Source of the DNA: Gemmatimonadales bacterium
GTDB taxonomy: Bacteria; Gemmatimonadota; Gemmatimonadetes; Gemmatimonadales; GWC2-71-9
NCBI GenBank assembly: GCA_035280265.1
Contig: DATEGE010000031.1
Span: 3,995-67,994, forward strand
Direction of reading: 5' to 3'
Length of the DNA stretch: 64,000 nt
Shown here: piece by piece, positions 8,501-11,340 of the stretch
Layout of the letters: each line of letters starts with the position of its first letter
Position numbering within the stretch: position 1 is the first letter of the stretch
Notes under the pieces: model-generated
The model's input: only the letters and a program-made list of their open reading frames with translations
The model's database searches: none
What the model was told of the DNA's origin: nothing
Translations under genes and position numbers: made by a program

Positions 8501-9093
8501 ATCTCACCGGGAAGTTCTTGAGCAATGACACGCGGGTACGAATCCGCACCAACATGGAGATCTATTGGGATCGGGCGTTTGTCGCGGCGACGGCCTCGGC
8601 GAGCCCGGTGGCGGTGACGAGGTTGCCCCTGATCACCGCCGATCTCCGGTATCGCGGATTCTCCCGCATGTACCGGAAGGGGGGGCGCTATGGGCCGCAG
8701 TGGTACGACTACAACGACGTCTCGCGCGACGCGGCGTGGGCGCCGATCCCTGGCGCGCTCACCCGCTATGGCGACGTGTTGCCGCTGCTCCGCTCCTCCG
8801 ACGACATGTACGCGATCTTCGGGCCCGGCGACGAGATCGCACTGCAGTTCGACACCGCTGGGGCGCCGCCACTCCCCACGGGGTGGACGCGCGATTTCGT
8901 GCTGTATTCCGATGCATGGCTGAAGGACGCCGATTTGAACACGTCCGGTGGAGGCACGGTGGAGCCGCTGCCGTTCCACGCCATGTCGCGCTACCCCTAC
9001 GGCGGCGACGAAGCGTTTCCGACGGACGCCGGGCATCGGCGCTTCGTGGAGACGTACAACACGCGGCGGGTGGGGCGGGGTCGAGGCCGCTAA
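5548..9093 (+). CDS. TPR + FG-GAP + ASPIC/UnbV protein with a large C-terminal domain (SCPFLY motif)
   Basis: TPR helices (GLAYLQQNQLPKAEAEF..), FG-GAP repeats, VTHFGLG, KGSCPFLY. ATG 5548 preferred over TTG 5512; LAIGC lipobox-like sequence. Confidence 0.85.
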   Translation: MSAFRLPRSAFGPCLALAIGCRGAVPGDSVARSDSAVTARTWGLAYLQQNQLPKAEAEFRKVVGLAPDQALGYANLGLVYLREGRYRDAESQLAKARALDSTNADVGMMLARVYAETGREAAARREIERVLQRDSTDIRALYALAQLPGEPREGLLRRILARAPVNLVTRLDLIDLLLARGAADAAAAELETLQRQLPQLPREAARYFDASLRAARAGAGVGAGRVSEAAVQAARFHRAMEVTAAYQVSLQHLGGAGGAGGALVGYPVLTFSPNLAVPTEDARAVAAGIRFTDVTEGSGLEGVEALPDSVAASLERAVALAAGDYDDDEAEDLYVGGHLFRGTLGRFVETTDGAGVELRDRATAAAFGDFDNDGRLDLYVARRGGASLFRNLGDGKFRDVAASAGLADSGAATAARFVDLDHDGDLDLLLATPAGTRAYRNNLDGTFREMATQMGLAVEHSRDATFGDFDGDGRVDIVVVGTDGRLRLFHNLGQGHFEDVTAASGLAGAEHAAAVAVGDYDNDGFLDLFVTSLAGPGPVLYHNRGDGTFEIDARTRALRRALSGVAGLDAVFFDFDNDGWLDLLVVGRPGPARLTPGRRPGGVFLFRNDRTRGFEDVSSILPTDLRAGRAVAVADFDQDGDLDLIVVGSDGKPRLLRNDGGNVSQYVDVRLAALRQGSGKNNTFGYGATLELRARDLYQLRLVTDRVTHFGLGRRLKADVLRVGWPNGVSQTVYYPGTEEDVLEQQLLKGSCPFLYVWGGDGRGFTFATDVMWNSALGMPLGIMTREGGIMSASPRASQEYLRIPSGLLQPRDGRYELRLTEELWETGYLDEVRLLAVDHPDSVQMYLNERFTPAGVSALRLYPVARPRPPVAATDERGNDLLPALRAQDFVFAATLVPARYQGLTEPHDLVLDFGALAGMDSVFLFLTGWIYPTDASINFALAQSQALHVVPLQLQVRDVAGEWRTVIPDLGFPAGKNKTIIVDLTGKFLSNDTRVRIRTNMEIYWDRAFVAATASASPVAVTRLPLITADLRYRGFSRMYRKGGRYGPQWYDYNDVSRDAAWAPIPGALTRYGDVLPLLRSSDDMYAIFGPGDEIALQFDTAGAPPLPTGWTRDFVLYSDAWLKDADLNTSGGGTVEPLPFHAMSRYPYGGDEAFPTDAGHRRFVETYNTRRVGRGRGR
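5551..5578 (+). repeat. 4 x 7-bp tandem repeat (TCCGCGT)
   Basis: TCCGCGT TCCGACT TCCGCGT TCCGCGT immediately after the ATG. Confidence 0.7.
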
Positions 9094-9121
9094 AGAGTTC
9101 TGTACAGGAGAGGGTGACGCT

Positions 9122-9166
9122 GGGGTGGGGGCGCCAAGGCGCGCGTTGCGCGTTAGCCCCCACCCC
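9122..9166. terminator. GC-rich inverted repeat between convergent genes (terminator or REP-like)
   Basis: GGGGTGGGGGC ... GCCCCCACCCC arms in the 9094-9196 gap; no clear U-tract. Confidence 0.4.
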
Positions 9167-9196
9167 CACGCTGCGCATGGCTCCTGCTGACTTGCC

Positions 9197-9796
9197 TTAG
9201 ATGAGGTAGCCCCGCCTCATGAGGTTGCGCCCTGACGCCGCGTAGCCGTCGGGACCGGGCAGATACCAGCTCATGGCATCGGCGAGCCGGTCGTAGATGT
9301 TGAAGACCGCGCAGACCTGAATTGCGTCCTCGATGGCTTCATCATTCAAGCCGACGGTGCGGAGCGGCGCCACGTCGGCGGGGCGGACCTCAGTGGGCTC
9401 AAGCGTGAGCTTCTCTAGGAAGCCGAGCGTGGCCCGCAGCTTCGGGTCGAGCGGGGCGGTGCGCCAGTTCGCGAGCACCGCCGCGACCAGCGTGTCATCC
9501 TTCCCTTCGTGTTTGAGCGCCAGCGACGCGACCGCGCCGTGCGACTCCGTTCAGAAGACGCACTGATTCAGGCGGGAGGTGAAGGCGGCGAATAATTCCC
9601 GTTCGCCGACACTCCACGGGGAGGGCCCGCGCATCACCGCCTGGGTCCAGTCGCTCATCGGCCGGCCGAAGAACTCGGGGCGATACAGCAGCGTCTTGAC
9701 GACGTCGGGGACCCGGCGCCCGCCCACCAGCCTGATCAGCAGCAGCTTGAGGCGCTGCGGCAGGCGGTGACGGTGATCGACTGCGGCTAGCCGCAT
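9197..9796 (-). CDS. AhpD/carboxymuconolactone decarboxylase-like peroxidase, probable selenoprotein (C-V-F-U, UGA at 9553-9551)
   Basis: ORF-track pieces 9551..9826 and 9197..9478 are in the same frame, separated only by TGA at the second Cys position of CxxC ([13 protein letters not shown]). The joined 199-aa protein resembles the AhpD family throughout. Confidence 0.78.
9515..9550 (-). promoter_or_regulatory. candidate bacterial SECIS element
   Basis: 3' of the UGA: ACGGAGTCGCA-CGGCGC-GGTC-GCGTCG-CTGGCGCTC. A 6-bp upper stem with a G-initial 4-nt loop 17 nt after the UGA, plus a possible lower stem GAG..CTC. Confidence 0.55.
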
Positions 9797-9801
9797 CGAT
9801 A

Positions 9802-10197
9802 CTAGTCCTGCGTCGCCCCGCTCCACTCGATCGCGGCGAGGGGAACATTGGGTGAGGACTCGCCCCGCAGCGCGCGGAGCCCGCGCTCCAGCCGTCCCAG
9901 CGCCGCTCCGAGCGCCGCCGAGACCGTGAGCTCGAAGAGGGCGTCGTCGGAATGGCCCGCCCGCTGCAGCGCGGCGACGTCATCGTCGCTCACCCGATGG
10001 GCGTGCCGGGCGACCTTGTCGACGTAGGCCGCGAGCGCCGGAGACAAGGCTGGGGAGAGGGGGCCCGGGGCTGAGGACCGCGCCGCTCGGACCACGACCG
10101 CGCGTCGCAGCTGCTCCGTCGTAGCGCCGGGGGTGGCGAGCACTGCGGCCACCAGTCGCGTGCTGTAGGCGCCGGAGCGGCCGCCGAGCTCGCTCAT
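9802..10197 (-). CDS. small AhpD-like/CMD-fold protein lacking cysteines
   Basis: [42 protein letters not shown] resembles the AhpD-like C-terminal helices; stop lies 5 nt upstream of the selenoprotein ATG. Confidence 0.65.
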
Positions 10198-10434
10198 GAG
10201 GTCGTTGTCGGGTCGGGAGCCCGGTAGAATGGCGGCACTGGTCCGGGTCGTCAAGTAGAGGCGTTCGCTTTCGCAACCACTCGAATGGCTGGGCCAGTAC
10301 CCCCCCGACCTTGCGGGGTTCCCGTCCAGGGCGTATTTCAAAGCCGCTGCCAATTCCCTAGCTCCGCTGGTGACCCGTTACGCTGGTCGGAGGGCAGGCG
10401 TATGGTGCGAGGCCATCACCTCGTTGCCGTGCAG

Positions 10435-11340
10435 ATGCGACGTGTCGGGTGGAGTGTCTCCCTACTCCTGGCCACCGCGCCACTCGGCGCGGGCGGCCAG
10501 ACGGCCGCCTCCAAGTCCCCGACGGCTTCCGAGCCGGTCTCCCTAATCATCCGCACCGACGATGCGGGGATGAGTCACAGCGTCAACATGGCGTTGCAGC
10601 GGCTCATCGAGAGCGGACTACCGGTCTCGGTCTCCGTGATGTTCGCGTGCCCCTGGTATCAGGAGACGGTGGAGATCCTGAAGCGGCATCCCGCCGTGTC
10701 CGTCGGGATTCATCTCACGCTCAATGCGGAGTGGAAGAATTATCGCTGGGGGCCGGTCCTCGGCCGTGAGGCGGTGCCGACGTTAGTCGATGCCGACGGC
10801 TACTTCTTCCAATCGTCGGAGGCGCTGTACAAGAATCATCCCGCCGTGCCCGAGATCGAACGGGAGCTGCGCGCGCAGATCCAACGGGCGCTCAAGTCCG
10901 GCCTCAAGATCGATTACGTCGATTACCACATGGGCACGGCGGTGCGCTACCCCGAATTCCGCGAGCTCACCGAGCGGCTGGCGCGCGAGTTCGGGTTGGG
11001 GATGTCGGGATACTTCGGAGAGACGATGGATAACCCGCAGTACTGGGCGGCCCCGCCGAACAAGGCGGACAGCCTGGTCGCGTTCGTCGATCGACTGCGG
11101 CCGGGGCTGAATGTCGTGGTCACCCACGTCGGGATAGACGATGCGGAGCTGGGCGCGTTGTTGGACATGAACACCGACCAGCCCCTGCCGGACATGAGCA
11201 AGAATCGGCAGGGCGAGCTGGACGCGGTCACGTCGACTCGGTTTGCCGCGTCGCTGAAAGCGCGCCATGTCGTGCTGCTGACGTATCGAGATGTCATAGC
11301 GAAGGAAGGCCTGCAGTCCATGCGTCGACCCGTAGACTGA
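10435..11340 (+). CDS. ChbG/HpnK (YdjC) family carbohydrate deacetylase, exported
   Basis: IIRTDDAGMSHSVN, GIHLTL and DYHMG motifs; signal peptide; start estimated. Confidence 0.8.
   Translation: MRRVGWSVSLLLATAPLGAGGQTAASKSPTASEPVSLIIRTDDAGMSHSVNMALQRLIESGLPVSVSVMFACPWYQETVEILKRHPAVSVGIHLTLNAEWKNYRWGPVLGREAVPTLVDADGYFFQSSEALYKNHPAVPEIERELRAQIQRALKSGLKIDYVDYHMGTAVRYPEFRELTERLAREFGLGMSGYFGETMDNPQYWAAPPNKADSLVAFVDRLRPGLNVVVTHVGIDDAELGALLDMNTDQPLPDMSKNRQGELDAVTSTRFAASLKARHVVLLTYRDVIAKEGLQSMRRPVD

Follow-up and report, generated by a model that had tools for sequence, protein, structure and literature searches.

A TGA-interrupted AhpD-like gene in a Gemmatimonadales genome is very probably an intact, mis-annotated selenoprotein gene

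An AhpD-like gene in a metagenome-assembled genome (MAG) of the Gemmatimonadales is broken by an in-frame TGA, which raises the question of whether the locus holds a decayed gene, two small genes or one gene in which UGA encodes selenocysteine (Sec). The window analysed is a stretch of 64,000 nucleotides (assembly GCA_035280265.1, contig DATEGE010000031.1, positions 3,995 to 67,994 of the forward strand), and the coordinates below are positions within it unless another contig is named. A preliminary description, made from the sequence alone, had read the locus as a selenoenzyme gene and had taken this to imply Sec use in the lineage. Both parts of that reading are supported here, and none of the tests that it had named as able to refute it, each of which was run, spoke against it. 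Our results suggest that the locus is almost certainly one intact gene for an AhpD-like thiol/selenol oxidoreductase of 199 residues (TIGR01926/COG2128), in which the UGA at codon 82 stands for Sec, because (i) the Sec decoding machinery is present in the genome and (ii) the UGA, a hairpin behind it and the coding sequence further downstream are conserved in the lineage.

With translation table 11, the locus is listed as two ORFs on the reverse strand that share one frame (9551..9826(-) and 9197..9478(-)). Translation with TGA as U confirms that the two halves are in the same frame, as had been proposed, and that a single codon, the TGA at 9553..9551, interrupts the frame 9826..9197(-). The coding sequence of the AhpD-like (peroxidase-related) selenoprotein is placed at 9197..9796(-), from ATG at 9796 to TAA at 9199-9197, which agrees with the product of 199 aa given in the preliminary description. 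The ATG at 9796 is the likely start codon, as it aligns with the MRL... start of homologues, and 5 nt separate it from the TAG (9804-9802) that ends the upstream gene. The UGA codon (9551..9553, reverse strand) corresponds to residue U82, the second position of a C79-x-x-U82 redox motif, in the context N-Q-C-V-F-U-T-E-S-H. Standard pipelines had been predicted to split the gene, and they do: NCBI/ENA has separate, unnamed protein records that match its N-terminal (81 aa) and C-terminal (93 aa) fragments exactly.

Logan contigs from two different rhizosphere metagenome samples cover positions 9543-9650 and have zero differences at 9551-9553. Over the segment with the CxxU motif and the hairpin (9543-9575), where short contigs end, the contig depth summed for either metagenome run rises ~4- to 7-fold, as might be expected if several strains or species that occur together share a nearly invariant stretch of 30 nt. 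A different trace of the same codon is found in JGI metagenome gene calls, three of which (P0002, P0003 and P0021) come from close relatives and are full-length with W at the Sec position (CVFWT or CPFWT). The W in these calls is TGA translated as Trp by the gene caller, and the three are not true Trp homologues. Database searches therefore return false 'Trp' variants of the AhpD-like selenoprotein.

The full-length product matches TIGR01926 ('peroxidase-related enzyme') with 107.9 bits against a cut-off of 81.8, its residues 19-186 lying on profile positions 8-172 of 178, and the Pfam CMD profile with 29.5 bits. Membership in two neighbouring families was considered and rejected. NF041238 (AhpD_rel_CFYUT), which is a related but different family, has a profile of ~357 positions and scores 40.4 against 175 bits in a match to the C-terminal domain only, and TIGR04030 (perox_Avi_7169) scores 54.6 bits against a cut-off of 233.15. 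The best sequence matches in the PDB include 6K40 (E 1.7e-26) and 2OYO (E 4e-22), at 33-34% identity. An AF2 model computed from 12 sequences is all-helical (pLDDT 91.8, pTM 0.88), and a Foldseek search of the PDB with this model returned 6K40, 2PRR, 2OYO, 3C1L and 2PFX with probability 1.00 and TM 0.72-0.80. The modelled selenoprotein thus has the all-helical AhpD/CMD fold. Like it, the five structures, among them Deinococcus radiodurans DR1765 (6K40), are AhpD folds of ~190 aa that carry CxxCxxxH on the same helix pair, but they contain Cys rather than Sec and their first ~60 residues align weakly by sequence.

The active-site signature of AhpD is present as E67-x11-C79-x-x-U82-x-x-x-H86 (9539..9598, reverse strand) on the model helices H63-76 and H80-96, and E67, C79, C82(U) and H86 are invariant in an alignment with 11 Cys homologues. 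The pattern E-x11-C-x-x-C-x-x-x-H represents the proton-relay residues described for AhpD and PA0269 (PMC3141380). It is shared with Mycobacterium tuberculosis AhpD (Rv2429; 1KNC, 1GU9), which nevertheless differs in chain topology and has very low similarity to the selenoprotein (Foldseek TM 0.3-0.4, E about 0.1). The mycobacterial enzyme is also Cys-based and encoded in an ahpC-ahpD operon, whereas there is no such operon at the Gemmatimonadales locus. Outside the signature, a third Cys (C162, codon 9311-9313, reverse strand; IQV-C-AVFN) is invariant in 12 of 12 aligned Sec- and Cys-type homologues.

One assignment of the preliminary description has to be revised. It had placed the UGA at the resolving Cys, but the residue of M. 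tuberculosis AhpD with which the Sec aligns is Cys133, which is exposed and attacks. In that enzyme, the second Cys (Cys133) cross-links Cys61 of AhpC, and Cys130 is buried in part; for B. thailandensis AhpD, the same study gives more weight to the first Cys than to the second (PMC6626918). Because of this reverse weighting, the assignment of Sec to the attacking rather than the resolving position is made by analogy only.

We then compared the TGA codon among relatives. A six-frame search of 40 of them yielded an orthologue in 12 further species from the genus (77-85% identity), each with the in-frame TGA, and more distant paralogues in the order (33-43% identity) that also carry a TGA. Among 401 genomes sampled from the phylum, 171 have an AhpD-like match at E <= 1e-10, and nearly all of the matches listed, including most of the weaker ones, have one TGA. 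The TGA occupies an identical column (N-x-C-x-x-U-T-x-x-H) in ~36 of ~36 orthologues examined, which come from other Gemmatimonadota and one Actinomycetota MAG and have about 50-86% identity; the paralogue groups have it within C-x-x-U. Behind the TGA, 117 codons are open and conserved, with a mean identity to the window protein of 69% versus 79% for the 81 codons that precede it. At the site of the TGA, CxxC is found in full-length Cys homologues from metagenomes and Mycobacterium (49-61% identity) and in several Gemmatimonadota copies; Cys fills this column in P0005, P0010, P0028, P0046 and others, and at loci L066-L070 and L086-L091. These Cys homologues are single chains of 190-200 aa. An alternation of Cys and UGA among homologues, for which the preliminary description had suggested looking, is therefore seen at exactly codon 82.

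The genome, a 3.0-Mb MAG of 238 contigs that is 94.6% complete, was searched for the machinery that Sec decoding needs. It contains selA (520.6 bits), selB (301.1 bits, or 328.3 with a C-terminal piece) and selD (396.8 bits), all above the curated cut-offs, and one tRNA-Sec with anticodon UCA (ARAGORN; Rfam RF01852, 80.3 bits, above the cut-off), which is the only tRNA with this anticodon that ARAGORN finds in the genome. The check for Sec machinery that had been proposed earlier thus comes out positive for selA, selB, selD and tRNA-Sec(UCA) alike. The selD gene (contig C147:39445-40371, forward strand; locus L010) has an in-frame TGA of its own at the catalytic position (YSHGAG-U-ACKLG), which makes selenophosphate synthetase a further selenoprotein of this genome. 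Of 598 long coding-like ORFs, 372 end in TGA, which is also the commonest stop codon of the genome and hence not reassigned genome-wide. A crude whole-genome scan returned 123 candidate in-frame TGAs with coding-like sequence around them, many of which, judged by this context, look like consecutive genes in the same frame or wrong-frame ORFs. Three of the TGAs (C126:+2550, C143:-46248 and C82:+4989) stand beside a Cys (ACQ-U, CTV-U and CGR-U, respectively) with long coding-like flanks on both sides, and they may mark adjacent genes in the same frame.

Downstream of the UGA lies a predicted hairpin that corresponds to the upper stem-loop of a bacterial SECIS (bSECIS; 9524..9539, reverse strand). 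Its 6-bp helix pairs nt 15-20 with nt 25-30, counted from the U of UGA: the arms CGGCGC (9539-9534) and GCGUCG (9529-9524) enclose the loop GGUC (9533-9530, nt 21-24). The helix sets in 11 nt past the UGA, and 17 nt separate the UGA from the first G of the loop, which is where the preliminary description had located a hairpin CGGCGC-GGTC-GCGTCG with a G-initial loop. The folding energy of the 60-nt segment is -18.7 kcal/mol (z = -0.35), and 66 of 200 shuffled sequences fold equally well. As the sequence is GC-rich (70% GC), thermodynamic stability is no usable argument for the hairpin and comparative evidence was used instead. An Rfam search of 9100-9900 at E <= 10 gave only chance matches of the miRNA/snoRNA type and no SECIS family; for so short a hairpin this search is uninformative, with 0 of 4227 models matched.

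The comparative evidence is as follows. From 18 distinct sequences, RNAalifold predicts exactly the helix 15-20/25-30, in which 98.1% of cells pair. There are compensatory double changes at pair 17-28 (G-U to C-G in seven sequences) and at pair 16-29 (G-C to U-A in one), and none of 500 column shuffles attained the observed covariation score or paired fraction. Covariation is limited to these two pairs, as the helix hardly varies from one orthologue to another. At the protein level, the pair switches appear as linked substitutions (H-G-AVA-S, H-A-AVA-A and H-S-AVA-E). Synonymous change is almost zero over codons +4 to +10 in 26 orthologues: GCG-GTC-GCG does not vary in any of the 26, TCG is the sole codon for Ser and CTG the sole codon for Leu, and His is encoded by CAC in 25 and by CAT in one. 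Conserved residues that flank these codons use three to five synonymous codons. Cys-type genes have no helix at this offset, even where they keep the H-x-A-V-A motif, and in other Sec subfamilies the helix found there is a different one (e.g. ACGGAG/CUCCGU). Conservation, covariation and suppressed synonymous change place the hairpin beyond chance and, together with its absence from the Cys forms, argue at the sequence level that it is kept by selection.

A longer lower stem, which RNAfold draws for the window sequence (nt 7-13 with 33-39), was considered and rejected: it is not kept elsewhere and is dropped by RNAalifold, which leaves the 6-bp helix alone. Further pairs are possible at C13-G33 and A14-U32 (C31 bulged), though only within the genus and family. 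In a C-F-Y-U subfamily of AhpD-like genes from the same class (loci L083-L085, in genomes G353, G094 and G347), there is no helix at nt 15-30, and a hairpin of 6-7 bp (GACCUC-CGGGAA-GAGGUU) is found ~6 nt further downstream. This shift implies that SECIS geometry differs between paralogue groups.

A stem-loop ~11 nt 3' of the UGA with a G in the apical loop, which is how a bSECIS is recognized (PMC8659212), is what is found here. In Escherichia coli, the upper stem-loop of the SECIS lies 11 nt from the UGA, spans nt 15-31 and has an essential G23/U24 in its loop (PMC8659212). The present hairpin resembles the E. coli fdhF element in that its helix starts at nt 15, 11 nt past the UGA, and its loop contains G-U (here G22/U23). 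It differs in that its 5' arm has no bulged U, a feature on which E. coli SelB depends, and is thereby one nt shorter, in a 6-bp stem that is nearly pure G-C and in a lower stem that is not conserved. The loop of the E. coli fdhF SECIS is also GGUC.

Other explanations of the TGA have to be weighed against these data. A nonsense mutation could have inactivated a Cys-type AhpD-like gene, the downstream part of which is now decaying; table 11 does stop the frame at 9551-9553, and the public annotation does consist of two fragments. We consider this very improbable, since the same TGA stands in every orthologue examined from other species, down to 50% identity, and exactly on the column of the catalytic Cys, since the 117 codons behind it have stayed open and conserved, and since the genome has the full Sec machinery. 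A recent nonsense mutation, which the preliminary description had named as a possible refutation, does not agree with a TGA found in all ~36 orthologues examined. It is no more probable that two separate small genes exist, the products of which assemble without any read-through. Possible start codons are present in both halves, with a GTG at 9478 for the downstream ORF, but a product started there, 25 codons past the TGA, would lack H86 together with the entire second active-site helix. The 25 codons skipped in this way rank with the best-conserved ones of the gene, synonymous sites included. Moreover, the Cys homologues are undivided chains, and the AF2 model forms one compact domain across the junction.

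Decoding of the TGA as one of the standard amino acids (Trp or Gly), whether through reassignment across the genome or through near-cognate read-through, is still less probable. The W printed in the three JGI calls (CVFWT) would agree with it, but TGA works as an ordinary stop in most of the long ORFs, the column aligns with an invariant catalytic Cys that is never Trp or Gly in the homologues examined, the genome has tRNA-Sec and SelB, and the conserved SECIS-type hairpin accompanies only the TGA forms. The source is a MAG in 238 contigs, where an assembly or sequencing error might have created the TGA. This has a negligible probability: the Logan contigs of both rhizosphere samples are identical at the codon, and orthologues in other assemblies have the same codon. 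The reading of codon 82 as Sec is the one that we follow below.

If codon 82 is Sec, SelB with GTP and Sec-tRNA(Sec) would bind the hairpin and bring Sec to the ribosome at the UGA. In the modelled protein, U82, as part of the E67-x11-C79-x-x-U82-x-x-x-H86 signature, would then open the second active-site helix, and the analogy with Cys133 in M. tuberculosis AhpD suggests that it may serve as the exposed nucleophile. It could attack an oxidised partner (i.e. the sulfenate or selenenate of a peroxiredoxin) or a peroxide, after which C79 would resolve the adduct to give an intramolecular selenenylsulfide. The most likely role, by analogy with the nearest solved relative, is defence against peroxide and oxidative stress: a D. 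radiodurans mutant of DR1765 is sensitive to H2O2, and its complementation depends on the Cys residues of CxxC (PMC8945050). The proteins of AhpD fold also include the debrominase Bmp8 and CMD decarboxylases, so other substrates are conceivable. To our knowledge, no member of the TIGR01926/COG2128 subfamily has an enzymatic activity or a substrate that has been defined biochemically.

The gene directly upstream (9802..10197, reverse strand) encodes a partner of 131 aa, a truncated CMD/AhpD-like paralogue without the CxxC/U motif. A Pfam search of this protein gave no family. It has a weak match to TIGR01926 at profile positions 94-168, and hhalign aligns it as a homologue of residues 114-176 of the AhpD-like protein with a probability of 90%; the helix pair that bears CxxC/U is missing from it. 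Membership in TIGR04029 was rejected at 14.8 bits against a cut-off of 100.75. Searches with tblastn place the partner directly upstream in every orthologous locus with enough flanking sequence, at 35 loci with E <= 1e-3 and weakly at locus L066 (E = 0.059); locus L048, the flank of which is cut by a contig end, was left out of the count. The loci that bear a partner include both Sec forms (Gemmatimonadota and one Actinomycetota MAG) and Cys forms (Gemmatimonadota, Mycobacterium marinum and another metagenome). Beside the Cys-type genes of M. marinum and that metagenome, the partner is a gene of 103-112 aa that abuts or overlaps the start. The distant paralogue groups have no partner gene.

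The selenoprotein is probably co-translated with this small, catalytically dead paralogue, the gene of which ends 5 nt before its start codon and, in other species, overlaps it. The conserved two-gene module is the only element at this locus for which no described family was found, and the only lead to something undescribed. We tentatively suggest, from the sequences, that the pair could form a hetero-oligomeric AhpD-like redox enzyme that has not been described, in which the dead subunit shapes the active site or docks a partner, although we would not yet favour this view. The NCBIfam families TIGR04030 and TIGR04029 (CMD_Avi_7170) are presumably encoded by adjacent genes. Such a pair would parallel the present locus, where an AhpD-like CxxC-type protein also stands beside a motif-less CMD-like protein; the two cases are analogous, and the proteins studied here are not members of those families.

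The Sec-type orthologue found outside the phylum (locus L042, Actinomycetota MAG JBKPCT010000139) has 49% identity, the motif CPFUTNAH and the partner gene. Its hairpin has the same GGUC loop, with a G-G mismatch at pair 17-28. The module may have reached this lineage by horizontal transfer.

Selenoproteins of this kind have been described before. An 'AhpD-like protein' (COG2128, CxxU) was a new selenoprotein family in the 2005 Sargasso Sea study, with 27 sequences (PMC1088965), and 'AhpD-like 1' (COG2128, CxxU) comprised 299 selenoprotein sequences in the GOS data in 2008 (PMC2398784). A 2026 review explicitly names 'AhpD-like protein, TIGR01926, CxxU' (PMC13188914), and BSepDB has a family page for the AhpD-like selenoprotein (PMC13326102). 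The statement that AhpD-like proteins are among the known prokaryotic selenoprotein families is thus borne out, by the review and by the TIGR01926 score above the cut-off. The label 'hidden selenoprotein' is apt only for the annotation, which missed the gene, and not for the CxxU family of TIGR01926/COG2128, which was already established (PMC1088965, PMC2398784, PMC13188914). The present gene agrees with that family in all the defining traits examined, and the shared points are these: (i) it belongs to the same HMM family; (ii) it has CxxU with Sec in the second position; (iii) Cys homologues are widespread; and (iv) a bSECIS with G in the apical loop follows just downstream of the UGA. In contrast to the AhpD-like selenoproteins of marine plankton, this copy comes from a soil/rhizosphere Gemmatimonadales MAG, and there is no essential difference otherwise. 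No mention of Gemmatimonadota was found in the selenoprotein literature searched.

In brief, the gene is a genuine but mis-annotated member of a selenoprotein family known since 2005, and it is no discovery in itself. Its value lies mainly in annotation, because public databases list a selenoprotein gene as a pair of hypothetical fragments. Many Gemmatimonadota genomes probably contain this error, since most of the AhpD-like matches listed for the 171 genomes of the phylum sample carry an in-frame TGA. Together with the Sec-containing SelD, this indicates that the Gemmatimonadota, an abundant soil phylum, use Sec routinely. No concept is changed by these results: family, motif and decoding mechanism are textbook knowledge, and Sec use throughout the phylum extends known biology without being a surprise.

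A consensus scan of 9000-10500 for promoters and terminators found neither. In the same region, a long GC-rich palindrome (CTGGGGTGGGGGCGCC … GCCCCCACCCCCACG) occupies 9104-9190, where Rfam gives chance matches to miRNA models on both strands. It lies between the ends of two convergent genes, i.e. an FG-GAP/TPR gene that ends at 9093 and the selenoprotein gene that ends at 9197. Though unflagged by the terminator scan, this palindrome may act as a bidirectional transcription stop of a type without a T-run.
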